Below are positions 3,758 to 50,997 of a stretch of 64,000 nucleotides of DNA, piece after piece. Position numbers and translations under genes: made by a program. Position 1 is the first letter of the stretch. Each line of letters opens with the position of its first letter. The stretch is from positions 81,553 through 145,552 of the forward strand of contig VMER01000003.1 of assembly GCA_007375645.1 (NCBI GenBank). Direction: 5' to 3'. The notes under the pieces are model-generated. The model saw nothing but the letters and a program-made list of their open reading frames with translations. It was not told the origin of the DNA and searched no databases. The stretch comes from Parcubacteria group bacterium LiPW_15. GTDB taxonomy: Bacteria > Patescibacteriota > Minisyncoccia > UBA6257 > 2-01-FULL-56-20.

Positions 3758-4312
3758 TCAACTCGCCGGTTCCAATTCATCAAGATATTTTTCCGTGTCG
3801 GGGGTCTTCCCAGCAGCCAAAGAATCCTCTATATACTTTTTTATTTCGTCTAATTTTTTCTTGTCTACAAAATAAACTAGCACTCCGTTTTCGGTCATAG
3901 CGTCCAGGGCAGAATCAAAGCGTTCCGTCTCTATGGGGCGGACATCGCTTGTCGCATGCCATTCGCTGCGCCTCATCCCCCTGGACTCATCGCATTCAAA
4001 TTTGTCTCCCGGAAGGGTGTATATAATACCGCCCTTATCGCTGTCCCTGAATCTCTTTTCATCAGAGATAAGGATGTAGTATCTACCGCCCACTCTGCCC
4101 CTAATACTCCATGAATCATCAGGTCTGGGCCCGAGAAATGTAGCTGCAAATCCTTTATCTGGGGTTGCGAACAAAAGCTTTCCTTCTTGAAACCCGCGAG
4201 TCCGTTTATCATCCGGACTCAAAATTTCCAGATCTTCGGCCTGAGTGCCGTGATATAGAAATTCAGGTTTTTCCTTTTTAGGCTCTTTTTCTTGGCTCGT
4301 TTCTTTTATCAT
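3758..4312 (-). CDS. hypothetical protein (ORF trimmed to an internal ATG so it does not overlap tRNA-Leu)
   Basis: The ORF-track frame 3758..4435 overlaps tRNA-Leu(TAA) at its 5' end. The first ATG downstream of the tRNA is at 4312 (MIKETSQEKEPKK..LYHGTQAEDLEIL..). No family was recognised. Confidence 0.4.
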   Translation of the reverse strand: MIKETSQEKEPKKEKPEFLYHGTQAEDLEILSPDDKRTRGFQEGKLLFATPDKGFAATFLGPRPDDSWSIRGRVGGRYYILISDEKRFRDSDKGGIIYTLPGDKFECDESRGMRRSEWHATSDVRPIETERFDSALDAMTENGVLVYFVDKKKLDEIKKYIEDSLAAGKTPDTEKYLDELEPAS

Positions 4313-4316
4313 TCTG

Positions 4317-4398
4317 TGCCCGGGGCCGGACTCGAACCGGCACGCCTTTCGGCGCATCATCTTAAGTGATGTGCGGCTGCCAATTACGCCACCCGGGC
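4317..4398 (-). tRNA. tRNA-Leu(TAA)
   Basis: Reverse complement: GCCCGGGTGGCGTAATTGGCAGCCGCA-CATCA-CTTAAGA-TGATG-CGCCGAAAGGCG-TGCCGGTTCGAGTCCGGC-CCCGGGC-A. 7-bp acceptor stem, canonical anticodon loop CU-UAA-GA, long variable arm (class II), TTCGAGT T-loop. Confidence 0.8.
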
Positions 4399-4469
4399 AT
4401 ACGGGAAGTTTGACTGAATTCGTATCTGTTTTCAAGGATTGGCCGCCGGGTATATGCTAAAATCTTATT

Positions 4470-5327
4470 GTGAATTCCTTCTTCCCTTTTATTGCGGCGG
4501 TGTTGCAATCGGCGTCATACACGCTCGACAAAACAATACTCTCCGTCAAAAAGGTTTCTTTTAAAACCTACCTGGGAGTCAGCTTCCCACTTCTTTTTAT
4601 CGCGGACCTTATTATCTTCACCCTTTTCGGATTGAAAATAACTCCCGAGCTTTTCGCCGGAAACTTGGGCTGGCTCATGGGCGCGTCCATAATCCTCGCC
4701 ATCGGCTCAAATTTTATTTTCTACTTCGCCCTGGAGGAGGACACTCTCGGCGAAATTGAAACCTTCTCTCTTCTCGCCCCGATACCAACGATTATTTTTT
4801 CTAGTCTGGTTTTCCCGGACGAAAGAAATACGACTATCATCGTCCTCGCGCTCATCGCTTCCTTTGCGGTCGCGCTCACCCACGTGGAAAACTACCGGCT
4901 AAATATTAAAAAGAGGACGCTCATCATGCTCGGATGGTTTTTCTTGGCCATCCCGTTTAGCGCGGGAATCTCCAAAGTCCTTTTGGAAGTTTGGAACCCT
5001 ATCACCTTGGAACTCGTGAAGGACGGAATTATGGCCGCAGTCTTGGGCGGAATATTTTTTAAAGAGGCAAAAAAGGTCAGTAAGGAGAGCTTCCCGCTTT
5101 TTTTGGCGACCAACGGCATAAGCGCGATAGCCTGGATACTTTATTTCACGAGTTTCCAAAAGTTCGGAATCGTTTATACCGCGCTTCTTTTTTCCATCCA
5201 GCCCTCCCTAACCTATTTGTCCTCAGTGATATTCCTCAAAGAAAAATTGCGCTTAAAAAGAGTTGCCGCTTTCGCAGTGGTTCTTGCCGCCGCAGTTGCG
5301 GCGCAGATCTTAAAACCTTTGTATTAA
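4470..5327 (+). CDS. multi-pass membrane protein, possibly a DMT-superfamily (EamA-like) permease
   Basis: 285 aa with about 10 predicted hydrophobic helices, consistent with two EamA-like halves. Composition-based call only. Confidence 0.4.
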   Translation: MNSFFPFIAAVLQSASYTLDKTILSVKKVSFKTYLGVSFPLLFIADLIIFTLFGLKITPELFAGNLGWLMGASIILAIGSNFIFYFALEEDTLGEIETFSLLAPIPTIIFSSLVFPDERNTTIIVLALIASFAVALTHVENYRLNIKKRTLIMLGWFFLAIPFSAGISKVLLEVWNPITLELVKDGIMAAVLGGIFFKEAKKVSKESFPLFLATNGISAIAWILYFTSFQKFGIVYTALLFSIQPSLTYLSSVIFLKEKLRLKRVAAFAVVLAAAVAAQILKPLY

Positions 5328-5372
5328 ATTTTTTCGCTAAAAAGGCCCCTCCGCAGAGAGGCCTGGCAAGAT

Positions 5373-5714
5373 TCATTTCTCGATTGGCAGGAGTTTATGG
5401 CAGGCCTGTCCGCCATCAGCCGGCAGGTACTCTTTGCCGCAGGGGCACTTCCTGGGCAGGATGCCCATATCGTCGGCTACGTGATCCCGCCATTCCTTTT
5501 CGGCGTAGTCCGCGCCATCCCAATATCCCCGACTCTTCCAACCACAGGAACATTCCATCTGATCGTTCATGCCATCGGAAGTCATTGTCGGGACGTGCTC
5601 CGGCGCAGCGGCAGCGTTAATTGCATTCCATGCCTGGCGGTACTTTTCTCCGTTGGAGTAAGGGATATTCTTGAGAAACTGCTCCAGCGCCTCTCGAAAT
5701 TCCTTGACGTTCAT
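5373..5714 (-). CDS. hypothetical small Cys-rich (probable Zn-binding) protein
   Basis: 113 aa containing CSCGW...CPCGK...C. GGAGGTG ribosome-binding site 7 nt upstream of the ATG. A convergent terminator hairpin lies at 5336-5365. Confidence 0.5.
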   Translation of the reverse strand: MNVKEFREALEQFLKNIPYSNGEKYRQAWNAINAAAAPEHVPTMTSDGMNDQMECSCGWKSRGYWDGADYAEKEWRDHVADDMGILPRKCPCGKEYLPADGGQACHKLLPIEK

Positions 5715-6229
5715 TTCAGCGCACCTCCAGATTGCTTCTGAGCTAAGCTAGTGATAACACGCTCGAATAATCAAGTAAAGCCTACTCGAAGAAAGTGCCC
5801 CAGGAGAAATCCGGGTATGGACCCTCCAAATTGCCGAGTTTAAAAAATCTGCTATATTAAAAGCGGCGTGGTGCTGAAGTGCAACAGCGTGGGCCCGCAA
5901 ACCCACGATCCGCGTGGGGTTAAATGCCCCCGTCCACGCCTCCAATTTAAAAAACAAAACACCCTCGTTCGGGTGTTTTTCGTTTGAGGCCCGGGGAGGA
6001 GGCAGGGGCGAAGCCCCTGCACTTCCTCTATGTTTTGCTTCGCAAAAACAGATTATTGAAGGTCGGGATCTCACGCGCTCTCCGCCAGTTGGCGGATTGC
6101 TTTTCCGAACCCACGGTTCTGAATAATCTCCTCCTCGGGGAACCGAGCGCGGTTCCCCGACCCCCCTCCGCTGTTCGATTCCACGCAGCAAAAAGAAAAA
6201 CTCCCGACAAATGGGAGCTTTTCTTTTTG

Positions 6230-6301
6230 AGGCCCGGGTGGGAATCGAACCCGCGTATAATTCTTTTGCAGAGAATCGCCTTACCACTTGGCTACCGGGC
6301 C
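6230..6301 (-). tRNA. tRNA-Cys(GCA)
   Basis: Reverse complement: GGCCCGG-TA-GCCAAGTGGTAAGGC-G-ATTCT-CTGCAAA-AGAAT-TATAC-GCGGGTTCGATTCCCAC-CCGGGCC-T. Canonical loop CU-GCA-AA; discriminator U73 as expected for Cys. Confidence 0.8.
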
Positions 6302-6645
6302 AGCCTCAACTTTCTTAGATAGTTTAAGCCATTTGGCTTGTTTTTCAAACAAAAGAAAAGCGGCTCAGGGTTGAGCCGCCACGCCTCAGTCGTCAGTCGA
6401 AATGGAGTGCCCTGAATTCGTTGAGCTGGGCATCCAGGTCCAAGGACATGGAGTACACCTCCCATCACCCGCTGCATGTTCTTGCCGTCATATTCCGCAT
6501 ATACCTTGCGGACATCCTTCCCCGGCAGGACCGACACGGGATAGTCTTCATGATCGAAGGTGTCGCAGACCACAATCAGATGAGTCGCGCCATCCTTCTT
6601 CGCCTGATTAAGCCATCTCGCGATTGTCGTCTTGGTGGTCGCCAT
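6292..6645 (-). CDS. hypothetical protein; the 3' end of the ORF is doubtful
   Basis: Perfect SD AAGGAGGTG 5 nt upstream of the ATG at 6645. The ORF reads through two terminator-like hairpins (6333-6346, 6357-6376) and overlaps tRNA-Cys, so the true stop may lie upstream or there is a frameshift. Confidence 0.45.
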   Translation of the reverse strand: MATTKTTIARWLNQAKKDGATHLIVVCDTFDHEDYPVSVLPGKDVRKVYAEYDGKNMQRVMGGVLHVLGPGCPAQRIQGTPFRLTTEAWRLNPEPLFFCLKNKPNGLNYLRKLRLAR

Positions 6646-31982: not shown

Positions 31983-32546
31983 TTACGCCTCCTCGTCCAC
32001 GATCGACGACGACTCCGCCGGCCCCTCGGGGTCCTCGGGAACCTCGACGGCCTCGGGGACGTCGGGGGTCTCGGGAGGGCCAGAGAAGAGCGCGACGAGT
32101 CCGTGGAGCTCCGCGATCTCGCGCTTGAACTTGCCGATGGACTCGTACTCCGTGGCGACCTTCGCCTTGAGCCACTCGATGCTGGCGCTGGCCTCCTTGA
32201 TCCGCTCCTCGCTCCTCCGGTGATACTCGAAGAGATTAGTGATCCTCCCGTCCACGTCCTCGGCCACCACGTTCTGGAATCCGAGGACACCCACGACGAC
32301 CCCCAAGACGGTGCTCGCGCCGTCCGCGTTCTTCACGAACTTGGCAGCGGCGAACGCCTCCCGGAGGCCGAAGCGCTTCAGGTTGTTCGCGTAGGCGATG
32401 CCCTCCGCGAACTTCACGTCGGCCAGCTTGATCTTCTCGTCCAGCGTCTTCTGGTTGAAGGCTTCCTTCTGGAACTTCAGCAGCAGGCCGGTGGCAAAGA
32501 GCATGACGGCGACGGTGAGAAGGACGGAAATGACGATGGGAAACAT
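31983..32546 (-). CDS. hypothetical membrane-anchored protein (weakly LemA-like) in an about 65 % GC patch
   Basis: N-terminal TM segment and an acidic C-terminal tail. Terminator at 31925-31958 on the minus strand. The many overlapping ORFs in other frames are judged spurious. Confidence 0.4.
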   Translation of the reverse strand: MFPIVISVLLTVAVMLFATGLLLKFQKEAFNQKTLDEKIKLADVKFAEGIAYANNLKRFGLREAFAAAKFVKNADGASTVLGVVVGVLGFQNVVAEDVDGRITNLFEYHRRSEERIKEASASIEWLKAKVATEYESIGKFKREIAELHGLVALFSGPPETPDVPEAVEVPEDPEGPAESSSIVDEEA

Positions 32547-40816: not shown

Positions 40817-41102
40817 AGGCCTATAATACAGCGCTTTTGCTTTTTTTGCAAGTATTTTTAAAAGATCCGCCCCCAAATACGAAAATGGAGCCCCCGTGGG
40901 GCTCCGTGTGTTGGCTCGCTGAAGGCGAGCAGAATTTGATCAGCCGTAAGGCCGATTTTGGCTAGCTATTTTGGAATCATTGGGCTGACTTAATACTAGC
41001 ATCTAACCTGTCCGGCGCAATCGGGGGGGGTGTGGACAACTTTTTTGCCTAGCTCTCTCGGGAACGCGGTTCGCTTATCCTGCGAAAGCGCCCACTGCGC
41101 TC

Positions 41103-41122
41103 CCTGCCTGCCGGCAGGCAGG
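41103..41122. repeat. palindromic repeat copy A: CCTGCCTGCC|GGCAGGCAGG, followed 3 nt later by GGCGAAGCG
   Basis: Direct inspection; the same 20-bp palindrome occurs at 45298-45317 and a degenerate copy at 57682-57711. Confidence 0.6.
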
Positions 41123-41268: not shown

Positions 41269-42153
41269 ATGGCTTCGCTTGATAGGCTTTTTACCGATTA
41301 TCTTAATTACCTGGAGATAGAGAAAAACCGCTCGGTTAAAACCCGGGAAAATTATGAACAGTACCTCAAGCGATTTTTCGCCTTCGCCAAACCGAAATCC
41401 CCCGAAGACATCACTGAGGAATCGGTTCGTTCTTTCCGGGTGGCGCTCTCGAGAGAAAACATCAAAAAAATAACCCAGGGCTACTACGCGATAGCGATAA
41501 GGAATTTTTTGAAATATCTCGCGAAACGCGACGTCCTCTCTTTAGCTCCGGATAAGATCGAACTCCCGAAAATGAACCGGCGCGACATTGAGGTTGTGGA
41601 ATACAAAGATATGGAACGCCTGCTCACGCCTCCCAAAGACCCGAATCTCCGGGACTTAAGAGATTGGGCGATACTCGAAACTCTTTTTTCCACGGGACTG
41701 CGCGTTTCCGAGATCTGCTCTTTGGACCGGTACCTGGACCTGGAACGCGGAGAGTTCTCGGTGCGCGGCAAGGGCGAAAAGATACGAGTCGTGTTCCTTT
41801 CCGACGGCGCACGGCGCGCGATTAAAATGTATTTGGACAAAAGAACGGATGCGGATCCGGCGATGTTTGTGAGCCTTACCAAGAATGGCGCTGTCTTGGG
41901 ACGCATAATCCCCCGCGCGGTGCAAAGACTCATCGATACCCGCGCCAAACGCGCCGGTATCGGCAAACACGTTCATCCCCACGAGCTCCGGCACAGCTTC
42001 GCGACAGACTTACTTATAAACGGAGCGGATATCCGGGCGGTGCAGGAGATGCTCGGGCATTCCAATATTGCGACCACGCAAATCTACACCCACCTGACCA
42101 ATAAGGAGCTCAAAGACGTCCACAAATCTTTTCACGGCAGACGGAGAAAATGA
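41269..42153 (+). CDS. tyrosine recombinase, XerC/XerD family
   Basis: N-terminal SAM-like domain; C-terminal R..HxxR..Y catalytic residues (HPHELRHSFATDLL .. TQIYTHL). Confidence 0.8.
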   Translation: MASLDRLFTDYLNYLEIEKNRSVKTRENYEQYLKRFFAFAKPKSPEDITEESVRSFRVALSRENIKKITQGYYAIAIRNFLKYLAKRDVLSLAPDKIELPKMNRRDIEVVEYKDMERLLTPPKDPNLRDLRDWAILETLFSTGLRVSEICSLDRYLDLERGEFSVRGKGEKIRVVFLSDGARRAIKMYLDKRTDADPAMFVSLTKNGAVLGRIIPRAVQRLIDTRAKRAGIGKHVHPHELRHSFATDLLINGADIRAVQEMLGHSNIATTQIYTHLTNKELKDVHKSFHGRRRK

Positions 42154-43568
42154 AGATTATTCCCGGCCTCAGAACCTTGCGCTCTGATTTTATTAGAACC
42201 GCGGCTTGGATCTTGTGCGCAGTCGCCATATTTGTTTTTTTGGTAGCCTCAGCAGAAGTTCTCCGCACGAATGCCATCTTTGATTATGGCGAGGGGGTTG
42301 TTTTGAATCTGGCCAAGAACTTAATGGACAAGGGCACATATTTTTTCGACATAAACCACCCGCCCTTTATTCACGGAGTTTATCCCCCAATTTTCCCCCT
42401 GCTCATTTCGCTCGCCTGGCACAGCGCTCCTCCGCTTTTGTTCGGACGCCTGCTTTCGTTTGTCGCGGCTTTGGCCTCGGCATTCGTCCTGTATAAATTG
42501 CTTCGGGGAAAAATTGCAGCCGAACCGTCGGCTCAGCTGGCAATCATATTTTTGACTTCTTGGTTCATGATCTCCTTCGCTCCAATTTTAAGAATAGATA
42601 CCTTGGCGGTATTCCTTAGCCTCGTGGGAATCTATTGTTTTTTAAATCTCGGCTCCCGCTTTTGGATATCGGGCCCGATATTCATTCTGGCTTTCTACAC
42701 CAAGCAAACCGCCATCATTGCTCCGATCGCCGTTCTTCTCTGCCTGGCGGCCGGTCAAAATTGGAAGAAACTCGGAGTTTTCTCGGCATCTTATCTTCTG
42801 CCGCTCGCCGTATCATTTTTCACAATAAACGCGGCGACTGCGGGCCAGTTTGCGTTGCACCTTTTTACCTATAACAACATCGCCCTCAACTGGACGCACA
42901 TCTGGGGTGGATATGCCGCTTTTTCCCTGAGCTGTCTCCCTCTTTTCGCACTGCTGGTTTTGAACTCCGGGAAAAAAGAACTTTCTTTCTTCCACATATA
43001 CTTTTTCCTGTCCTTTCTGTCGCTTTTTTCTTTCGCAAAACCGGGCGCAAGTTCAAATTACTTCATCGAACCCCTTGCCGCGCTGATCCTATTGATCGGT
43101 TACCTCTTATCTGCCGACCAAAGAAGCAGTGTCCTCGGAAAAAGTTATTTGCGGACGGAGATATTTTTTTCCGCGCAGCTTATCCTCTCCATGCTGGTAT
43201 TCTTTAATTTTCTCGCAAGCCCCTTAAGTCCGCCGAAACCCACCCAGGAAATGGTGATTCGGGAGATAAACAACGCGCCGCCGGGAGAAATATTGAGCGA
43301 GGAAATAGGATATTTGGTTCTGGCGGGTAAAGACGTGCATCTTGAACCCTTCCAATTCTCACGGCTCGCAAAAGAGGGGCGCTGGGATGACTCCCCGCTT
43401 ATAAAGGATTGTGAAGCCAGTAAATTCTCACTGGTCTGGGCGGGGCCGAGGATCTTGAGCTTGCCGAACTTGGCCGGATGCCTCAATCGATTCTACGCGC
43501 GCCAAACCCTGCCCGGAGGATATTTTCTATATACGAAGAAATCGGCTCCGCCCTCCGCTTCCTTATAG
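42150..43568 (+). CDS. large polytopic membrane protein, putative GT-C-fold glycosyltransferase (ArnT/PMT-like)
   Basis: 472 aa with at least 11 TM helices. Its start overlaps the xerC stop. Architecture-based call. Confidence 0.4.
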   Translation: MKIIPGLRTLRSDFIRTAAWILCAVAIFVFLVASAEVLRTNAIFDYGEGVVLNLAKNLMDKGTYFFDINHPPFIHGVYPPIFPLLISLAWHSAPPLLFGRLLSFVAALASAFVLYKLLRGKIAAEPSAQLAIIFLTSWFMISFAPILRIDTLAVFLSLVGIYCFLNLGSRFWISGPIFILAFYTKQTAIIAPIAVLLCLAAGQNWKKLGVFSASYLLPLAVSFFTINAATAGQFALHLFTYNNIALNWTHIWGGYAAFSLSCLPLFALLVLNSGKKELSFFHIYFFLSFLSLFSFAKPGASSNYFIEPLAALILLIGYLLSADQRSSVLGKSYLRTEIFFSAQLILSMLVFFNFLASPLSPPKPTQEMVIREINNAPPGEILSEEIGYLVLAGKDVHLEPFQFSRLAKEGRWDDSPLIKDCEASKFSLVWAGPRILSLPNLAGCLNRFYARQTLPGGYFLYTKKSAPPSASL

Positions 43569-44954
43569 GACCGGACAACTGAACCCGTAAGTGCATCCCG
43601 CTTCAAGCGCGAAACTCAAAATTACGAGCAGTAAGACTGCCGCCAATTGCCATGGCTTCTTTATTTTTTTCTCCAAGAGCCAGCAAAGGAGTCCCACGGA
43701 AAAAATAAGTCCCGGAAAATAATGATAGAGGAACGTGCTCCTGTTGACTGCGGAAAAATACGGCGCGAGCGAAGCAAAATATCCGGCGAAAAGCAGGAAT
43801 GGAATTTTGATATTTTCCCCATCCAGGATATCCCCTTTTTGTTTATACCGTTTGTAAAAACCCGCGAGCAACCAAAGAAATGCGTATAGGGCGGCCGCGG
43901 AACCCAGGAACCACACTGCGTAGTTTCCGACCAAGACCAGGTTGCCAGTTTTCTCTTTGGAGTCGAAATAGAGCATGGATTTTTTGGCGATAGGCCACTC
44001 GTACCAGCTGCTCTGCAGCGGATGATCTTTGGCTCCGTAAAGATAGCCGCTAAGGCCGGCATCTATGTCCTGCAGAAACGCCGCCCCGCCGTATAAAGTT
44101 TTTTTGAGCGCAGAAAAATTTTCGATGGAGATCCTGTCTTTTGCGCCCAAAAGTTTTCTCGCCAGATTTATATTGTCGGCAAGCGGAAACACCGCGAAGT
44201 TTAAAAGATATATAACGCAAAGCGTGGCAATGGCGGAGAAGAAAAACTTTATGGCTCGCGAAACCCTCTCCTTGTTCATTCTTGCCAAGATGAGATCGGC
44301 CACGATAACGCCCAAAAATGAAACGGTCATGAGTTTTACCGAAAAGGCCAGTCCCAGAAATACTCCGGCCAGGGCAACGTGTTTTTTCCCTTCAAGATAA
44401 AGCGCGAGCGCAATGAATCCGAGCGTCAAATACATGCCGTTCATAAGGATGAGCTTGGTCTCAAGGAGCAAGGCGTTGTCGAACACCAAGAACGCCGCGC
44501 CAAGAAGCGCGGTTATGTCGCTGAGTTTTAGAGTTTTCAAAAACACGAAAAAGGCCAGCGGGAGAAGAAGCCCGAAAAGCGAAGAAATTATACGAAGCAA
44601 AATGTAAGGAAATTTCCCGTATGTATCCGGCCGATAGGCCATGTCCACTTTAAATTCATTCCCGGGAGTGCTGGTAACGGTAAAAGAAACGAACTCCACG
44701 GAACCGGCGAACGGATTTCCCGAAGCCACGAGCGCAGCTCCATAGATCATCTTGCCGAGCGGAGGATGAATATCGAAGTACGCGACGTTCTTTGCGTAGT
44801 CGGCCGCGTAAGTGGAAAAGTGCGCCTCATCGAAAACCGGCTCTGCCGGATAAGAAGCGCGATAGAGATGAAGCCCTAAATTGATCAGGGTTAAAACCCC
44901 AAGAATTATTGCTATCGTCTTTCTGCTGAGTTCTTTGTGAATCCAAGAATTCAT
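43563..44954 (-). CDS. GT39 / PMT-family (dolichyl-phosphate-mannose protein mannosyltransferase-like) membrane glycosyltransferase
   Basis: N-terminal loop motif DEAHFSTYAADY..FDIHPPLGKMIYGA (the DE...HPPL signature). ATG at 44954, with a GGAG SD, chosen to avoid the tRNA overlap of ORF-track 43563..45152. Confidence 0.6.
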   Translation of the reverse strand: MNSWIHKELSRKTIAIILGVLTLINLGLHLYRASYPAEPVFDEAHFSTYAADYAKNVAYFDIHPPLGKMIYGAALVASGNPFAGSVEFVSFTVTSTPGNEFKVDMAYRPDTYGKFPYILLRIISSLFGLLLPLAFFVFLKTLKLSDITALLGAAFLVFDNALLLETKLILMNGMYLTLGFIALALYLEGKKHVALAGVFLGLAFSVKLMTVSFLGVIVADLILARMNKERVSRAIKFFFSAIATLCVIYLLNFAVFPLADNINLARKLLGAKDRISIENFSALKKTLYGGAAFLQDIDAGLSGYLYGAKDHPLQSSWYEWPIAKKSMLYFDSKEKTGNLVLVGNYAVWFLGSAAALYAFLWLLAGFYKRYKQKGDILDGENIKIPFLLFAGYFASLAPYFSAVNRSTFLYHYFPGLIFSVGLLCWLLEKKIKKPWQLAAVLLLVILSFALEAGCTYGFSCPVL

Positions 44955-44994
44955 AGTGTATTTTCTCCGCCTAAGTGCGTCCCGTACAAAGTGC

Positions 44995-45060
44995 TGGGGG
45001 CGGGAGTTGAACCCGCACGCCTTGCGGCGCTGGCTCCTAAAGCTAGTGCGCCCTCCCACC
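44995..45060 (-). pseudogene. tRNA-Leu(TAG)-derived remnant (anticodon arm to 3' end retained, D-arm and 5' acceptor lost)
   Basis: The reverse complement ..GTGGGAGGGCGCA-CTAGC-TTTAGGA-GCCAG..GCGGGTTCAACTCCCGC.. aligns to the 3' two-thirds of the adjacent tRNA-Leu but cannot form an acceptor stem or D-arm. Confidence 0.35.
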
Positions 45061-45065
45061 TCTTG

Positions 45066-45150
45066 TGCCCGGGGGGAGATTTGAACTCCCATGATCTTGC
45101 GATCGCTAGCTCCTAAAGCTAGTGCGTATAGCCAGTTTCGCCACCCGGGC
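45066..45150 (-). tRNA. tRNA-Leu(TAG)
   Basis: Reverse complement: GCCCGGG-TG-GCGAAACTGGCTATACGC-A-CTAGC-TTTAGGA-GCTAG-CGATCGCAAGATCATG-GGAGTTCAAATCTCC-CCCGGGC-A. Class II long variable arm. Confidence 0.8.
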
Positions 45151-45297
45151 AATATCCCACCTTGTTGTTCAATTTATAATTTACCACAGAAATGCCCGAA
45201 GGGTGGGAGGGTAAATCTGCCAACTTGCCCCGTCAAAGCGAAGCTTATTCGGGGTTTCGCCACCCCAGCACTTTGAACGGGATAAATTTGCCATTTC

Positions 45298-45317
45298 CCT
45301 GCCTGCCGGCAGGCAGG
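45298..45317. repeat. palindromic repeat copy B: CCTGCCTGCC|GGCAGGCAGG, followed 35 nt later by GGCGAAGCG
   Basis: Direct inspection; in the same orientation as copy A. Confidence 0.6.
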
Positions 45318-45533
45318 GCCACCTGCTCGCCTCGCTATGGCTTCGGCGAAGCGGGCTCACTTTGACCATTCTATCCCAAAAAAAGCGATAACAAAATCTG
45401 CCGACACGGAAAATTGACTTCTGCCGTAAATTCGATATATTACAGACAGCAACCTGCGCGAAAGGAGGCGCGCGTCAAAACCGACCCAAGCCCCGCCGAA
45501 CAACGCTCAAAAACCCGAATGGGAGAAACGACC

Positions 45534-45761
45534 ATGGGATTCTTCTCGAAAAGCGAGTCCGAACGGTCCGCCGAACTCACAGGATACCGCTCCGACGGGA
45601 TCAAGGATGGGGTTTCCGGCAGGACCGACCCCCCCCACACGATCGGCGTTCTCGACCACCTGCTTCTCCGGGACAACTTCATCGAAGAGCTCCAGAAAGA
45701 CAACCAGGCCTACGCTGACGGCAACGCCATCGGCACAGCCGTAAGGAGCTCCCGGGAATAA
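45534..45761 (+). CDS. small hypothetical protein (75 aa), first gene of the GC-rich island
   Basis: GGGAG SD 8 nt upstream of the ATG at 45534 (MGFFSKSESERS..). The ORF track extends to 45414. Confidence 0.35.
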   Translation: MGFFSKSESERSAELTGYRSDGIKDGVSGRTDPPHTIGVLDHLLLRDNFIEELQKDNQAYADGNAIGTAVRSSRE

Positions 45762-45959
45762 CCCAAAATAGTTAGATATTTACTTGCGCATTTGCCCTTT
45801 GAGGCCCCCAAATCGGGGGTTTTGTTTTACTTGACTTTTTAAACATTTGGTGATATAATTTGGGCACTTGAGCGTAAAGCTCGAGCTCGCCATTTAACAA
45901 CGCGGCGGGGACGAAATCCCGCGCCGCTTCACGAGAACGAAAGAGAGAAGGAGTTTGTC

Positions 45960-47105
45960 ATGAAGAAAGACGACAAGGACAAGAAGGGCGAAGAAAAGAA
46001 GGAGGCGAAGAAGACCGGCGGATGGATCGGAAAGATCATCCGAAGCCTGATCCTCTTCCTCATCTGCACCCTACCGCTCTTGGGCGCAATCGCCTGGTGG
46101 GCGGGAATCGCGGCGGCCGTTGACGCGGCTGTCATCATCCTGGACCTCTTCATCCTGTTCCTGATCGGCAGGTTCGCGTATCGGGCCACCAAGGAGACCT
46201 TCTTCGGCGTCCCGCCGAACCAGGCCGCCATCATCGCGCGCCAGTGGTTTTCCGACGCAACTCCGGTACGAACCGGACGCGTCGTGACCCAACGGGACTT
46301 CCTGCCAGTGATCAAGATGGCAGCAAAGATCCCTTGGGCCGATCAAGCCCAGTTCGTGGAGCTCAAGGAGAAAACTCTGGACTTCACGGCCAAGGTCATC
46401 GCCATGGACGGGATGTCTATCAACATCTCGGGGACCTTGGCCTATGTTCCGGACTTCTGTATCCTGGACGCCGGCGGCGTTCCCGTCTTCGGGACCACCA
46501 CCGAAGCGGATATCGTCACGAAGGCGAGAGCGATTGCCAAGAACAAGATCGGAGCGGTCGGCAATGTGACCGACTCGGACACCATTCTCCAGAGTCTCCC
46601 AACCATCGACCAGATGCTCAAAGGAGTTATGCAGACTTCGCAGCTCCCCCACCTTCACATTCCGGGCGGGGACACTGTCCCCGCCAAAGACCTGGTCAGC
46701 TTCTACGCTGCGAACTGGAAGGCCATCGACGAGCAGATCAAGCTGCACAACGCCGCGGCGGCCGAACACTCCGACCTGGAACTCACCAACGGCATCGACA
46801 TCCGTTGGGTGAAGACCGAGTCGCCAGCCCTCTCGGCCGAAAGCCAGAAGGCCAAGGACGAGAAGGCCCGGGTGGCCGCCATCCAGAAGGGGCATGCCAA
46901 TGCCACGGCCATGGTCAAGCAGTTCATGACGGATGTTCCCAAGGCGAGTTCGGCGGCTGCGATCAATTTCGTTGCGCAGGAACTCTATCGGGACAACACG
47001 ACCCGAGTGATCAACTCGGTGGAAACATCCGAGGGAGCTGGCGCCGAAGGGCTCCTCGCTCTCGCGGCCGCGAATCTCGGCAAAGCTGCCGGAAAGGGGA
47101 AGTAA
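45960..47105 (+). CDS. SPFH / band-7 (stomatin-flotillin-like) domain membrane protein
   Basis: AAGGAG SD. N-terminal Lys/Glu-rich tail and two TM helices, then a ..PVRTGRVVTQRDFLPVI..DQAQFVELKEKTLDFTAKVIAMDGMSINISGTLAYV..GIDIRWVKTESPAL..AQELYRD pattern that fits an SPFH core followed by a coiled-coil; Ala-rich C-terminus. Confidence 0.5.
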   Translation: MKKDDKDKKGEEKKEAKKTGGWIGKIIRSLILFLICTLPLLGAIAWWAGIAAAVDAAVIILDLFILFLIGRFAYRATKETFFGVPPNQAAIIARQWFSDATPVRTGRVVTQRDFLPVIKMAAKIPWADQAQFVELKEKTLDFTAKVIAMDGMSINISGTLAYVPDFCILDAGGVPVFGTTTEADIVTKARAIAKNKIGAVGNVTDSDTILQSLPTIDQMLKGVMQTSQLPHLHIPGGDTVPAKDLVSFYAANWKAIDEQIKLHNAAAAEHSDLELTNGIDIRWVKTESPALSAESQKAKDEKARVAAIQKGHANATAMVKQFMTDVPKASSAAAINFVAQELYRDNTTRVINSVETSEGAGAEGLLALAAANLGKAAGKGK

Positions 47106-47106
47106 G

Positions 47107-47649
47107 GTGAGAGGAAACGCTTCCGCCAACACCCCAAGGGGCAGGAAAGGTGGGAGTGTCATCTACCTCATCGCCTTCCTCTTGCTTGCCGCAGCGATCG
47201 CCTTCGCGGCAGTGAAAGTCTTTTCCGTCATCAACTCGATGGCCAGGTCGGCCGTCACCACGGTCGACGACCGCCTGGGAGTCGAGAAGGCCCTGGCGAA
47301 CATTCCGGGGTCCCACTCCGCGACCAAGGTCAAGCGCCCGGCGCCCTGCTCGGGGATGAATAAGGTCGATCTCGGCTGGTACGACAAGGCGTACCACGAG
47401 AGCGCGGCCGTGTCCCTGCCGCGCGGATGCGCGGTGATGGTCGAGGTTCACCCCGACCCGGCCGCGAGGATCTCTTTCCGGTTCGACAACGGACCGAAGA
47501 ACGATCTCGGCGTCGCGACCAAGAGCAAGTCGTGGCTCATCAAAGCGGGGGACGTTCCCCCATCCATCGACACAGCGAAAGACTACGTGTTTTGGTTCTG
47601 GGACCCCAAAGGCCAGAGCCACCTCGTTCTCCGCGCTGACCGTCTCTAG
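47107..47649 (+). CDS. hypothetical membrane-anchored protein (possible partner of the SPFH protein; NfeD/YqiJ-like by position only)
   Basis: GTG start 1 nt after the upstream stop; a single N-terminal TM segment. Strong terminator at 47682-47708. Confidence 0.4.
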   Translation: MRGNASANTPRGRKGGSVIYLIAFLLLAAAIAFAAVKVFSVINSMARSAVTTVDDRLGVEKALANIPGSHSATKVKRPAPCSGMNKVDLGWYDKAYHESAAVSLPRGCAVMVEVHPDPAARISFRFDNGPKNDLGVATKSKSWLIKAGDVPPSIDTAKDYVFWFWDPKGQSHLVLRADRL

Positions 47650-47681
47650 TTCGTTCAGCTCTTCGCCCCGTATCGGGGCAG

Positions 47682-47708
47682 CCCGGCCTCACGGCCGGGC
47701 TTTTTTAA
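47682..47708 (+). terminator. rho-independent terminator ending the GC-rich island
   Basis: CCCGGCC-TCAC-GGCCGGG followed by TTTTTT. Confidence 0.75.
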
Positions 47709-47775
47709 TACAATAAAAACAAAACCCGCCCGAGCATTTAGCTTGGACGGGTTTTTAAATTCTTGTTAACGGATC

Positions 47776-48192
47776 TTAGTAGCCAACAATGCTCCTTACG
47801 AAGCCGGGCAAGATCGTAGCCAAGAGAGCGACGGCCATAGCCACTACCGCGTAAAGCAACATGTGGCTAGCCTTGCTCACCTTTTCCGGATCACCTCCGG
47901 CAGTAAGATACACGAAGGCGGCATAGATGACCATTATGATGGCAAGCACCCAAAAAGCCCATTTGATGAGCCCGAGCACAGTGCCCTCGATGAAACTCGT
48001 GACGCCCGTGAGGCTTCCGAATGTTCCGCTACCCTGGCCGATCGGCTCGGTTACTATCGCACCGGCAAACAACGGGGCGAGAAGCAATCCGGCGCTGACC
48101 GCGAGTATGAGTGAACCTTTGATTGATTTCTTCATAGTGTAATTCGAGAAGACTCGACCTTTCAATGATTCCAGTTTAGCACAAATATCCAA
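47776..48192 (-). CDS. VirB2/TrbC-like (T4SS pilin-like) small membrane protein
   Basis: Signal peptide, then two hydrophobic helices joined by the turn YLTAGGDPEKVSKAS. Confidence 0.5.
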   Translation of the reverse strand: MDICAKLESLKGRVFSNYTMKKSIKGSLILAVSAGLLLAPLFAGAIVTEPIGQGSGTFGSLTGVTSFIEGTVLGLIKWAFWVLAIIMVIYAAFVYLTAGGDPEKVSKASHMLLYAVVAMAVALLATILPGFVRSIVGY

Positions 48193-48208
48193 GTAAATAA
48201 ATCAAAAC

Positions 48209-48595
48209 CTACTGATTTATGATGTCCGTGATGAGAGACACAACGGATCGGGAGATAAGCACCACCGCAAAACCTATCGCGGAATAGAGAACTGTCTTTC
48301 CTCCGGTCTTTACTTTTTCTGGATCACCCCCGGCGGTCAATATTTGAAATCCTCCCCAAAGAACCATTATGGAAGTAAGGGGAATCGCTATATAGAAAAT
48401 CAGATCCATTATTTTTACGAGTATGCAATCCAGCTGTCCGCAAGTGCCGAAGGGACTGAGATCTTTGAGATCGATAACCTGTTCCCCGCTCGGCGGGAGA
48501 GTCATATCGCCGCTAGCGGCCATCACATATCCTCCGACAGCCAGAAGCGACAAGGTTATACCGACAAAAACAATCGTGCTTATTTTTTTACCCAT
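48209..48595 (-). CDS. VirB2/TrbC-like (T4SS pilin-like) small membrane protein
   Basis: ILTAGGDPEKVKTGGK turn between two helices. The likely start is the ATG at 48595 (MGKKISTIVFVGITLSLLAVGG..); the ORF track extends to 48700 across a large hairpin. Confidence 0.5.
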   Translation of the reverse strand: MGKKISTIVFVGITLSLLAVGGYVMAASGDMTLPPSGEQVIDLKDLSPFGTCGQLDCILVKIMDLIFYIAIPLTSIMVLWGGFQILTAGGDPEKVKTGGKTVLYSAIGFAVVLISRSVVSLITDIINQ

Positions 48596-48608
48596 TTGTT
48601 TAAGTTTA

Positions 48609-48673
48609 CCCCCACACCTAACGAAGAACAAGAAGCCGTTTGCGGATAAATTTTTCGTTAGGTGTGGGGGTTT
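48609..48673. promoter_or_regulatory. 18-bp perfect-stem hairpin (ACCCCCACACCTAACGAA / TTCGTTAGGTGTGGGGGT) with a 29-nt loop, immediately upstream of the pilin-like start at 48595
   Basis: Direct inspection; the arm next to the ATG contains the G-rich SD-like sequence. Confidence 0.5.
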
Positions 48674-48704
48674 ACCCCAACTGCGTCCCGCTAAGAACAA
48701 GATT

Positions 48705-49211
48705 CTATTGTGCGCGGAAAACGCTTTGGCAAAAGCTTAACGGCACGTACTCCCTGTCACCGTCGGACGCCAAAGACGATATAGATATCTTAAGCTTGCA
48801 GAGTTCCTGCTTGCCGGCCCCCAAAATTGCGAAAAGAGAGTTTTCTGCCGCACTCCTTCCAGCCGAAGAGGCCGAAAGATCCATTGCGATCTCAAAGCCG
48901 CTATCCGCTCGATAATAAAGAATGTCGTATCCCGCGGCCCGAGAAACAAGCACTGCTCCGCTCTCCGGTATCGCCGCCTTAGCAGTTTTATAAAAGTTGT
49001 TCACCCAAACTCCCCCGCCGGGACCCTGAAGCAAAATCCTTTCGGAACTCGGCGCGAGAGGAAACGCTTCCGCGATAGACGCTTGCCCCATTGGGCCGCC
49101 TTGCCTATCCGCCGGGCGAAAAACCAAAAGAGCCACGACGAATAAACTCCCGGCAGCGACAACAGCCAATAATTTTAAAAAGATTAGTTTCATTTGAAAA
49201 AAATTCCACAA
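48705..49211 (-). CDS. hypothetical secreted protein, paralog A (…VWVNNFYKTAKAA…)
   Basis: N-terminal signal/TM segment. Shares the NFYKTA motif block and overall architecture with 49190..49738. Confidence 0.45.
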   Translation of the reverse strand: MWNFFQMKLIFLKLLAVVAAGSLFVVALLVFRPADRQGGPMGQASIAEAFPLAPSSERILLQGPGGGVWVNNFYKTAKAAIPESGAVLVSRAAGYDILYYRADSGFEIAMDLSASSAGRSAAENSLFAILGAGKQELCKLKISISSLASDGDREYVPLSFCQSVFRAQ

Positions 49212-49738
49212 AAACTAAGCTTGGCTGGATCGGCTTTCGGCATCGACACGCTAACGGTAAGCCGACAAGCGTCCGCGCGGGAGATCCCCAAGCGGTCAAT
49301 AAGGTCTTTTTCCGCCTCAAGCCTTGTCTTCTGATCTTCAACTCTAACCACAATATCGAAACTCCCGTCGTAAATGGAATAATCCAGCTCGTATTTTTCG
49401 GAAAAAAAGATCACTACTTGGTTTTCCTCGACAACGGCAACCGCGGTTTTATAAAAATTTTTCACCTTAATACCGCCGGTTGGAGTTGAGATCGTGAATG
49501 TATCTCCGGCGGGCGAACCCGCGGGCAAAGAAACCTGCCCGCCCGCGCCTCCCAAGAAATCCATATTCTGCTCTTTGTCTCCGCCCAAAACCGGAACCTC
49601 CGACTCGGTAACCGCCGGAGATTCGGGACGGTTTTTGAACCAAATGATGCCGGCGTAAACCAGACCCACAGCCACCAGCACGGAAAGAACGATTAAGATC
49701 TTCTTCATTTTATTAGTTCCTGTCGCAACCCGCCGCAC
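49190..49738 (-). CDS. hypothetical secreted protein, paralog B (…IKVKNFYKTAVAV…)
   Basis: N-terminal signal/TM segment; paralogous to 48705..49211; overlaps its neighbours by a few codons. Confidence 0.45.
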   Translation of the reverse strand: MRRVATGTNKMKKILIVLSVLVAVGLVYAGIIWFKNRPESPAVTESEVPVLGGDKEQNMDFLGGAGGQVSLPAGSPAGDTFTISTPTGGIKVKNFYKTAVAVVEENQVVIFFSEKYELDYSIYDGSFDIVVRVEDQKTRLEAEKDLIDRLGISRADACRLTVSVSMPKADPAKLSFCGIFFK

Positions 49739-50540
49739 TTACGTGAACGTGTGTAGCGTCGGCGCAGCCAACTTTTTGACCGGCCGCGTTTTCACAACGC
49801 GCGCCGCCGGATTTTGCACCGCACTGATTAGCCGCAGAAACGATAGCTTCGAAATATTTTGCCTTATCGCTGCCGCTCTTCCCGGCTCCGCCATAGTCCA
49901 CCGCCAAAGCGCCGTCGCTGCCGGATGAACCGCCGTAATGGCAGGAGTTTTTCGTGTGGCTGCACCTACCGCTCGGCTCGCATCCCGGAGTTCCTCTCGT
50001 ATAGTTGCACGATGAATGATCTATATCGTACGTGAATTTGCTGCCGGGTATGGAGCCGACTTTCCCCTGGATACAGCCCATTACATTCTGCAGCTCCGAA
50101 GAATTTCTTGCCGGATAAGCAGTATTGTTTTTCTGCGCCAAAGTTTGAGGATCACATTTTGCTCCGCAAGTTATTGTCGGCTCGCAGGTTGCCCTGGGAT
50201 CTAGGCTTGAACATACGCCATCGCAATCCTCAGTTTTAAAACAACTGTCTCCCACCGCCGCTCCGTCCACCTTACAGGCATATTGCGGCACCTCTCCCGC
50301 CGTCGTACTCGTGGGCGAGACGATTTGGCTCAACTTCGGTATCTGAAGGATGGTAAGCTCTGGATTAATGGTGTTTAGAATGACAAAGGCACCTCCCAGA
50401 AGTACCAGTCCCCAAAGAGCCTGGGTTATCTGGTCTTTGGCATCGCTTATGACTCCAGGATTACCCTGAGAAGCAGTCCACTTTATACCTGCATAGAGGA
50501 GGCTCAGAAAAATGAGCGTTAAAAAAACTTTTTTCTTCAT
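49713..50540 (-). CDS. secreted protein with a pilin-like N-terminal helix/turn and a Cys-rich (more than 20 Cys) C-terminal domain
   Basis: ATG at 50540 (MKKKVFLTLIFLSLLYAG..), 2 nt after the upstream stop. ..WTASQGNPGVISDAKDQI.. turn and second helix, then a CxxC/CDG-rich domain of about 200 aa. Confidence 0.45.
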   Translation of the reverse strand: MKKKVFLTLIFLSLLYAGIKWTASQGNPGVISDAKDQITQALWGLVLLGGAFVILNTINPELTILQIPKLSQIVSPTSTTAGEVPQYACKVDGAAVGDSCFKTEDCDGVCSSLDPRATCEPTITCGAKCDPQTLAQKNNTAYPARNSSELQNVMGCIQGKVGSIPGSKFTYDIDHSSCNYTRGTPGCEPSGRCSHTKNSCHYGGSSGSDGALAVDYGGAGKSGSDKAKYFEAIVSAANQCGAKSGGARCENAAGQKVGCADATHVHVSAAGCDRN

Positions 50541-50541
50541 T

Positions 50542-50997
50542 TTATTTACAACGTATCTCCGACCAGCTGGACTGCTGCATATTCGCAACCGTCGGGAACG
50601 TCCAACCGATAAGAGAAAAGAAAGTATTAACAATAATAAACGCACCGACCGTGATGGCGATTCCTATAACCGTCGAAAGAAGCATCTTCCTGGCGTCGCT
50701 CACTTCAGTCGCGTTTCCCCTGGCAAGCATTATCCGCACACCGCCCCAGATGAGAAAAAGTGGCGCGATGATATAGATGGCAATGGTCATCGCCATTTTT
50801 ACGATGTTCTGCCCGGTTACCAACAGATCGCAAAAACTCGTGCATTGGGGCAAAGCCGAACCCGGCTGCGGCGAACCGCTGCAAGAAACTATCGGCCCCC
50901 AATACGGAGAAAAAGCTCCGGCGGAAGCAAGTGCAGGCACAAGCAAGGAGGCGAAAATCAAAGCAAGAGCCGGTATCGCGAAATATATTTTCCTCAT
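50542..50997 (-). CDS. VirB2/TrbC-like (T4SS pilin-like) small membrane protein
   Basis: Signal peptide, a short Cys-containing segment, then two helices joined by IMLARGNATEVSDARKM. Confidence 0.5.
   Translation of the reverse strand: MRKIYFAIPALALIFASLLVPALASAGAFSPYWGPIVSCSGSPQPGSALPQCTSFCDLLVTGQNIVKMAMTIAIYIIAPLFLIWGGVRIMLARGNATEVSDARKMLLSTVIGIAITVGAFIIVNTFFSLIGWTFPTVANMQQSSWSEIRCK

Follow-up and report, generated by a model that had tools for sequence, protein, structure and literature searches.

SPFH scaffold proteins that operate with small partners are common in bacteria, and the gene family itself is known. Here we analyze a pair predicted to be of this kind, encoded by the genes g2 and g3 of Parcubacteria group bacterium LiPW_15 and located within a 64-kb stretch of contig VMER01000003.1 (hereafter the window, to which all coordinates refer unless another contig is named; strands are given as + or −). 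The pair resembles QmcA-YbbJ of Escherichia coli (PDB 8z5g), in which an N-terminally anchored SPFH protein is followed by a small membrane partner in one operon: the predicted structure of g2 matched chain 8z5g_A with a Foldseek E-value of 5.6e-8, and a profile of the g2 family matched the QmcA sequence with E = 7.8e-7. It differs from this system in that the partners lack PF01957 and combine one transmembrane (TM) helix with a domain that varies and is probably extracytoplasmic; g2, for its part, has a family-specific insert and two hydrophobic helices at its N-terminus. HflK and HflC, known from their complex with FtsH (7vhp, 7wi3, 9cz2), gave the best PDB sequence matches to the family profile (E = 4e-13) and share with g2 a long coiled-coil helix behind the SPFH core, but there is a single SPFH gene at the locus studied here, and no FtsH gene is adjacent to it in the window. 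The top structural matches were stomatins (human 9oh9 and 9z7u, and PH1511 of Pyrococcus, 3bk6; E = 7.5e-10), with about 15% sequence identity; PH1511 is partnered by PH1510 (NfeD/STOPP), whereas the partner of g2 is no NfeD protease.

The neighborhood of the pair brings in a second described system. Arrays of VirB2-like pilin genes are widespread in the Patescibacteria, or candidate phyla radiation (CPR), where 441 arrays of 2-11 genes have been described, one of them reported as essential in a Saccharibacterium (bioRxiv 10.1101/2025.01.22.634366). The convergent neighbors of g3 form such an array of divergent paralogs belonging to PF18895. The terms SPFH, stomatin and band 7 have no occurrence in the text of that study, and no description of a fixed SPFH-partner neighbor of pilin arrays was found in the searchable literature.

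We consider it probable that the g2-g3 operon is an ancestral, syntenically fixed and very fast-evolving envelope module of the Parcubacteria. Its new aspects are (i) a Parcubacteria-wide SPFH subfamily, one clade of which appears to have diverged past Pfam detection, (ii) a non-NfeD, predicted single-pass partner, the putative outer domain of which is swapped between lineages, even between near-identical strains, and (iii) the fixed position of the pair beside a VirB2-like pilin array in every locus examined with downstream sequence.

Gene g2 (45960-47105, +) encodes a protein of 381 amino acids that is 100% identical to LiPW15_743, annotated merely as hypothetical; g3 is 100% identical to LiPW15_744. 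A word-indexed protein search with g2 recovered the protein itself and one relative of 58% identity. When a profile of these two sequences was compared by HMMER with 1.84 billion representative proteins, 65 matches were obtained, the named ones from Candidatus Liptonbacteria and Candidatus Lloydbacteria. The Band_7 domain (PF01145) was detected in 64 of the 66 aligned relatives (best E = 3e-23), and the family profile matched chains of HflC, HflK, prohibitin, stomatin, QmcA and erlin in the PDB. The subclade formed by the window protein and P0002-P0005 was aligned by hhalign with 13 Band_7-positive Parcubacterial proteins over 281 columns, with a probability of 100% and E = 9e-42.

The structural prediction pointed in the same direction. 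With the 66-sequence alignment, AlphaFold produced a g2 model with a pLDDT of 89.7 and a pTM of 0.74 (the two-sequence alignment gave a pLDDT of 42 only). The model comprises two N-terminal helices, a beta-sheet (residues 88-164), helices at 182-225, the family-specific insert and a long helix at 293-325, and contains a beta-strand at the conserved S..E..GID motif. A hydropathy scan placed hydrophobic segments at residues ~22-48 and 50-76, which constitute an N-terminal membrane anchor. The 34 best Foldseek matches in the PDB were all SPFH proteins (E from 7.5e-10 to ~3e-5, probability 1.00), spanning stomatin, prohibitin, HflK/C, flotillin, QmcA and erlin; vault proteins, whose shoulder domain has the same fold as SPFH, ranked below them. 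These results identify g2 as an SPFH protein which has drifted past the reach of the Pfam model. An SPFH core followed by a coiled coil had been proposed for this gene in a preliminary description of the window, and the proposal is borne out through homologous intermediates and the predicted fold.

The insert of the Parcubacterial SPFH proteins (g2 residues ~226-270) carries a conserved PPH..H....C....C motif, which is possibly metal-binding. The g2 protein retains the histidines of this motif only (LPHLH), both cysteines being gone; P0004 and P0005 keep the CxxxxC pair.

Gene g3 (47107-47649, +; 180 amino acids) begins with a GTG codon 1 nt past the g2 stop. Its product begins with a basic N-terminus, which is followed by one TM helix and a domain of ~105 amino acids with two cysteines, in agreement with its earlier description as a single-pass membrane protein in a partner-like position. 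In 10 of 11 loci, the SPFH stop and the start of a partner gene of matching architecture are separated by −4 to +3 nt, and the window pair has a single promoter-like site (P2, see below) and a single terminator; on these grounds g2 and g3 are predicted to form a two-gene operon. The C-terminal domains of the partners differ between loci. One domain is common to L001, L002 and L012 (contigs of related bacteria), and that of g3 is unrelated to the domain of the L001 partner (BLAST E = 2.7).

The suggestion that g3 is an NfeD/YqiJ-type protein did not hold at the sequence level: PF01957 matched neither g3 nor nine partners in the same position (10 proteins tested, E ≤ 1). Moreover, g3 gave no sequence match in the PDB at E ≤ 5 and no meaningful match in Pfam, PHROGs, NCBIfam or PADLOC. 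As judged from its sequence, g3 is a positional analog of NfeD and not a demonstrable member of that family.

The window was compared with contigs labelled L001-L007 and L010-L015. In all ten loci with downstream sequence (the window, L002, L003, L004, L010, L011, L012, L013, L014 and L015) an SPFH gene (+) and a partner gene (+) are followed by a convergent PF18895 array (−). In the window this array starts with two genes for VirB2-like pilins of type IV secretion systems (T4SSs), called at 47776-48135 (−; convergent with g3) and 48209-48595 (−). Both belong to PF18895: 47776-48192 (−) scored 26.9 bits, thereby passing the gathering cut-off of 26.6, and 48209-48700 (−) scored 41.7 bits, above the gathering score. 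Across the module loci, the identity of the SPFH proteins to that of the window falls from 58% to ~25%.

The outer flanks vary upstream of the module, which is preceded by a ribosomal-protein operon in L011, by FtsH and HAD genes in L013 and by a tyrosyl-tRNA synthetase gene in L014. A tRNA-Leu(TAG) gene (−) lies upstream in seven of the eight loci with upstream sequence, i.e. in the window, L001, L002 (where it is cut by the contig end), L004, L012, L013 and L014 (where it is located two genes away from the SPFH gene). Because the same order recurs in related lineages, the adjacency of tRNA-Leu represents old synteny. An absence of the genes from related genomes, expected of an acquired island, was not observed; orthologous pairs occupy the same position in L001-L004 and L010-L015, and L005 alone differs, upstream of 47325.

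The two genes stand out by their base composition. The GC content of 45960-47649 is 61.1%, compared with 49.4% for the whole window (about 62% and about 48% in the preliminary description; the GC-rich stretch is real). No other 1.7 kb of the 64 kb are richer in GC, and only 0.24% of sliding windows reach this value. An abrupt shift of composition after tRNA-Leu, also described earlier, was not seen: 45150-45960 is intermediate (52-56% GC), and more than 60% is reached only from ~46000. The GC content at third codon positions (GC3) is 0.77 in g1, the open reading frame (ORF) preceding g2, 0.80 in g2 and 0.83 in g3, versus 0.55 ± 0.08 in 60 other long ORFs, which corresponds to z-scores of 3.1 (g2) and 3.5 (g3). 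The excess lies mainly in third codon positions, with first and second positions (GC1 and GC2) of g2 exceeding the mean by less than 1 standard deviation. The tetranucleotide distance to the window average has a z-score of 5.3; GC3 and tetranucleotide signature both mark the genes as atypical.

The same excess was found in some of the related loci. The GC3 values of the SPFH and partner genes, compared with those of their flanks, are 0.80/0.83 vs 0.49-0.62 in the window, 0.79/0.78 vs 0.67 in L001, 0.72/0.69 vs 0.45-0.55 in L002, 0.73/0.68 vs 0.57-0.62 in L003 and 0.65/0.60 vs ~0.5 in L004, and there is no excess in the more distant L010-L012. Two N-terminal helices and a raised alanine content (11-15% vs 7-11%) likewise characterize the subclade with raised GC3 (the window and L001-L004).

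High expression was considered as the cause of the high GC3 and dropped, since the other long ORFs, PNPase, S1, GyrA and RecA included, all have values of 0.65 or below, bar one orphan. The window maximum (0.915) belongs to a 187-amino acid orphan at 31983-32546 (−), which has a TM helix at its N-terminus and a tail that is acidic and Pro/Glu-rich; it gave no match in Pfam.

Sequence divergence is distributed very unevenly along the locus. Between the window and L004 the amino acid identity amounts to 80.5% for PNPase, 77.5% for the NYN protein, 84.6% for S15 and 86.4% for the recombinase encoded nearby, against 45.8% for the PMT-family glycosyltransferase and 32.7% for the SPFH protein, and is undetectable for the partner; a 472-amino acid glycosyltransferase-like membrane protein is extra in the window and missing in L004. 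The whole envelope-related stretch appears, from these comparisons, to be evolving fast.

A near-conspecific strain (contig L005) revealed a sharp discontinuity at the locus. Its sequence is 97-100% identical to that of the window over most of 47769-49310, both pilin genes included, and the synonymous divergence (dS) in these two genes is 0.07 and 0.08. In the C-terminal domain of g3 the identity is 79-85% and dS is 0.59, and homology is lost upstream of 47325, inside g3. The high identity ends at the g3 terminator, which is also where the composition changes. In L005 (1-1364), and also in L006 and L007, the locus contains different genes of 61-64% GC. Those of L005 encode a protein with a TM segment and an Ala/Lys/Glu-rich coiled coil (at least 158 amino acids) and P0070, a 289-amino acid multi-pass protein, the C-terminus of which is 63% identical to the g3 domain (from nt 47325) with a ratio of nonsynonymous to synonymous divergence (omega) of 0.20. 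The exact junction 31-mer was found only in the L005 contig among metagenomes and in none of the GTDB genomes.

Only one subclade shows the GC3 excess, and toward L005 dS jumps within g3 before homology is lost; we conclude from this that the locus has undergone some replacement, be it horizontal or recombinational. The GC-rich state is thus a property of alleles at a conserved locus and not the result of island integration at tRNA-Leu. Most likely, either a GC-richer relative contributed a copy that replaced the resident pair long ago, or the locus has kept recombining.

The preliminary description had interpreted g1-g3 as a horizontally acquired three-gene island, integrated site-specifically at tRNA-Leu; the acquisition would then be recent, with the tRNA remnant and the palindrome as attachment scars. 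The locus does share with tRNA-targeted integrative islands a strongly atypical composition and a tRNA gene with a partial duplicate; a tyrosine recombinase gene is located 3 kb away (41269-42153), and L005 has no homology upstream of 47325. The comparison nevertheless speaks against such an event. The order tRNA, SPFH gene, partner, pilins recurs in relatives with intact tRNAs and with SPFH identities of 58% to 25%, and conservation of this kind had been named in the preliminary description itself as a ground for rejecting the island. A direct repeat of the tRNA 3′ end, sought near 47.7 kb, was not found, all tRNA-derived repeats being confined to 44991-45272. The genes lie on the 5′ side of the tRNA and the remnant beyond its 3′ end, i.e. 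on the opposite and, for an island, wrong side. Around a 165-bp insert, the remnant can be reassembled with a 5′ fragment into a single tRNA, which leaves no room for an element. There is no integrase or recombinase gene within 45273-47710, and the recombinase outside it is syntenic in L004 (86.4% identity) and L012 (66%). The palindrome is dispersed and conserved in other genomes. No relatives were found in IMG/VR or among GTDB representatives (both searched with alignment A1), nor in phage and plasmid collections (tblastn). We therefore regard integration of an island at tRNA-Leu as extremely improbable. A GC3 anomaly beside a partially duplicated tRNA can mimic a textbook island, and it was the comparison of loci that uncovered conserved synteny and replacement at the level of alleles.

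The remaining explanations accept the locus as an old one. The GC3 excess could be a local by-product, of GC-biased gene conversion or another mutational or selective bias, at a vertically inherited and hypervariable surface locus. This would fit the z-scores in g2 (~3 for GC3, below 1 for GC1 and GC2), the directly demonstrated recombination, the high GC content (61-64%) of the different cassette in L005, and an SPFH divergence that tracks that of the PMT protein (58% vs 74% identity in L001, 33% vs 46% in L004), as in fast vertical descent. We nevertheless consider it unlikely: the equally variable neighboring pilin genes are not GC-rich, more distant lineages possess the module but lack the excess, the raised alanine content of the subclade means that the shift is not purely synonymous, and GC-biased gene conversion has, to our knowledge, not been demonstrated in CPR bacteria. 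A conflict, defence or surface-specificity cassette in a strain-variable hotspot, for which strain-level replacement, swapping of the partner C-terminal domain and very fast evolution could be cited, seems very unlikely, because no PADLOC match was obtained for g1-g3, three orthologs, three partners or the two L005 proteins, because the module occurs throughout the group and is not patchy, and because an omega of 0.20 indicates purifying selection on the g3 domain. The function of g2 might also be a general one, as a housekeeping SPFH protein (for example an FtsH modulator resembling HflK/C, or a membrane-quality factor resembling stomatin), with pilin adjacency reflecting gene order only. Housekeeping SPFH proteins are normally well conserved, whereas g2 evolves like the surface proteins nearby; HflK and HflC are a pair of paralogs, whereas here one SPFH gene is accompanied by a non-SPFH partner; and the SPFH-partner-pilin trio stays intact in L011, L012 and L014, in which the outer flanks on both sides are different. 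These points make a housekeeping role rather doubtful, although HflC and HflK are the top PDB sequence matches of the family, the NCBIfam models of HflC and HflK weakly match 20-28 of its 66 members (far below the curated cut-offs, and with no match for g2), and FtsH is encoded 1.3 kb upstream in L013. A larger block that includes the pilins, a solute-binding protein (SBP) and GyrA is, in addition, conserved in the window, L010 and L013. Finally, the T4SS components of Agrobacterium co-fractionate with SPFH-marked, detergent-resistant membrane domains independently of the SPFH proteins themselves (PMC8656257).

Several points weigh against our reading of the pair as an SPFH module connected with the pilins. 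The g2 protein gave no Band_7 match even at E ≤ 1 and nothing relevant in NCBIfam, PHROGs or PADLOC, and the profile of the five-sequence subclade alone found no SPFH chain in the PDB; the SPFH membership of g2 rests on intermediates and a predicted structure. Of the SPFH profile search suggested earlier for 45960-47105, the direct match thus failed and the homology to Band_7-positive relatives was established. The sequence of L005 breaks off 494 nt ahead of P0070, so that strain may or may not have an SPFH gene. The pilin genes are convergent with g3 and not co-transcribed with it, and their adjacency could be a frozen gene order without a functional link, given that the larger block up to GyrA is also conserved. 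The hydrophobic hairpin of stomatin keeps the N-terminus and the SPFH domain on one side of the membrane; similarly, the two helices of g2 may leave its SPFH domain in the cytoplasm with the partner domain facing outward, in which case contact between the two would be limited to the membrane.

By analogy to solved SPFH assemblies (HflK/C, QmcA-YbbJ, stomatin, prohibitin, flotillin), the ancestral module that we favor would most likely work as a ring or cage of g2 on the cytoplasmic membrane, fencing a microdomain. The g3 protein would be its cognate single-pass partner, enclosed in the cage or docked to it, probably with the N-terminus inside and the exchangeable C-terminal domain outside the membrane. 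The partner encoded in L015 carries PG_binding_1, a peptidoglycan-binding domain, which argues for this location of the variable domain. Without being NfeD, g3 would fill the role that NfeD or FtsH has at other SPFH cages. The small ORF g1 and the rearrangement of the tRNA would be separate, small and lineage-specific insertions in one intergenic region.

Since the pair is always arranged tail-to-tail with a VirB2-like array, a role connected with pilins is plausible. From the gene neighborhood only, we tentatively suggest that the SPFH microdomain serves the handling or assembly of VirB2-like pilins for a T4SS-like host-contact apparatus. If the link is functional, g2 and g3 would be two further components of this poorly understood apparatus. 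A more elaborate version is speculative and on balance doubtful. In it, a dedicated Parcubacterial SPFH microdomain system, made up of a cage-forming SPFH protein and a partner whose outward-facing domain is exchangeable, organizes or quality-controls the pool of VirB2-like pilins, while exchange of the partner ectodomain between strains and replacement of whole alleles, visible as GC-rich mosaic DNA, tune surface or host specificity. If true, no SPFH system before it would have had such a fixed syntenic tie to a pilin array, and it would offer a way into the question of how ultrasmall episymbionts assemble their contact apparatus.

The tRNA-Leu locus has a history of its own. An intact tRNA-Leu(TAG) gene (45065-45150, −), recognized by ARAGORN and by the Rfam tRNA model (53 bits), is carried by a 165-bp insertion (45051-45215) within an ancestral tRNA-Leu(TAG) gene. 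The insertion separates the 3′ two-thirds of the ancestral gene (44991-45050, −) from its 5′ third (45216-45272, −), which is itself interrupted by a 31-bp insert (45224-45254). Removal of 45051-45215 and 45224-45254 yields an 83-nt tRNA-Leu(TAG) that is accepted by ARAGORN (44991-45050 + 45216-45223 + 45255-45272). This rebuilt tRNA is 84% identical to the L001 tRNA and 98% identical to the partial L002 tRNA, and its 5′ flank (45273-45293) matches that of the L002 tRNA. The intact copy has the same orientation as the ancestral one and is 76% identical to it, with a different acceptor stem and T-arm. A 10-bp inverted repeat, CCCTCCCACC (45051-45060) and GGTGGGAGGG (45202-45211), which is unique in the window, brackets the insert.

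It therefore appears that a small insertion destroyed the ancestral tRNA gene and brought its own replacement, so that one tRNA is nested within its predecessor. What had been taken for a degenerate tandem copy of tRNA-Leu is indeed partial tRNA sequence; it is the ancestral gene, split by the insert. This event is separate from the history of the SPFH genes, which in L001 and L004 have an intact tRNA beside them. On either side of the ancestral gene, the flanking sequences (44980-44999 and 45263-45282) can pair beyond the acceptor stem into a 20-nt stem of 95% complementarity, and similar leader-trailer complementarity exists around the L001 tRNA.

The palindrome next to the tRNA locus, TCCCTGCCTGCCGGCAGGCAGGG (45296-45318), is perfect and has the 20-mer core CCTGCCTGCCGGCAGGCAGG. 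A second exact copy is present at 41101-41122 (core at 41103). Outside the window, the core was found exactly at 3653-3672 of L004, after S15 as in the window, and with one mismatch each at 42-61 and 5107-5126 of L010. The element, of 20-22 nt, is intergenic and occurs in Parcubacteria whose GyrA is only 57% identical. The palindromic repeat noted earlier thus exists, but, as it recurs in other Parcubacteria, it is a conserved dispersed intergenic element and not an attachment site or integration scar; it looks like a hairpin or a protein-binding element. The possibility that the two copies bound a mobile element comprising the recombinase, the PMT gene and the tRNA was also considered and rejected, as L004 has this block in synteny and as the copies of the palindrome in L010 lie at unrelated intergenic sites.

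The transcription signals of the region, all on the + strand, define two predicted units. The unit of g1 would be transcribed from P1, a promoter-like site (TTGACT-16-TATATT) at 45414-45441, and end at a terminator-like hairpin with a T-run behind the gene (45800-45824). That of g2-g3 would start from P2 (45831-45859), a TTGACT-17-TATAAT site with 11 of 12 consensus positions and a TG-extended −10 hexamer, continue through a 5′ leader with an ACAAC box and a GC hairpin (45897-45927), and end at a strong intrinsic terminator (47680-47708; hairpin 47680-47701 plus T-run), which had been placed at 47682-47708 in the preliminary description. The other sequence features listed there were likewise found within a few bases of the positions given.

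In its −35 hexamer and spacer, P1 is like the lone promoter upstream of the L001 SPFH gene, and the sequence past P2 resembles the L001 leader. A (G/A)ACAA(C/A) box immediately followed by a hairpin is present in all five SPFH leaders of the subclade (outside the window at ~813-835 of L001, ~210-230 of L002, ~65-90 of L003 and ~9930-9965 of L004), and the hairpin sequence differs in each lineage. The window hairpin has a predicted energy of −19.2 kcal/mol (z = −3.8), and single-sequence folds gave z-scores between −3.2 and −4.8 in four of the five leaders. RNAalifold returned no consensus for the five leaders, whose hairpins vary in length and sequence, and a search of 43-49 kb with Rfam at a permissive threshold found the tRNA only, with no match to the leader. 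The SPFH leader may have a stabilizing or regulatory function.

The orphan ORF g1 occupies 45534-45761 (+; 75 amino acids), or 80 amino acids if it starts at 45519. It matched no family in Pfam, PHROGs, NCBIfam or PADLOC, and a word-indexed search of 5.8 billion proteins for homologs returned only g1 itself. Its GC3 of 0.77 (vs a GC2 of 0.44), a GGGAG Shine-Dalgarno sequence and a terminator of its own suggest that it is coding. In L001, L002 and L004, the tRNA and SPFH genes have no g1 between them; it looks like a lineage-specific insertion of ~0.4 kb, sitting between two similar promoter-like sites.

Upstream of the module, the window contains the genes of RecA, PNPase, the NYN protein and S15, in this order, followed by the tyrosine recombinase (41269-42153), which lies beyond tRNA-Leu as seen from g1-g3. 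The gene of the 472-amino acid glycosyltransferase-like membrane protein (42150-43568, +) comes next, and that of the PMT-family glycosyltransferase (43563-44954, −) adjoins the tRNA. The tRNA-Leu(TAG) gene (−) is followed by g1, g2 and g3 (all +) and by the pilin array (all −). The remaining genes of the array (48705-50645, −) encode membrane proteins of 162 and 172 amino acids and a 310-amino acid protein with a pilin-like end, and have homologs in matching position in L002 and L012. The SBP and GyrA genes lie beyond the array.

The Liptonbacteria relative L004 contains, between S15 and the recombinase, a region of ~2.7 kb (3803-6542) that is missing in the window. It encodes a NUDIX protein, a 281-amino acid protein and a 299-amino acid protein, the last of these with 63% GC and a GC3 of 0.77, and may represent a true small island.

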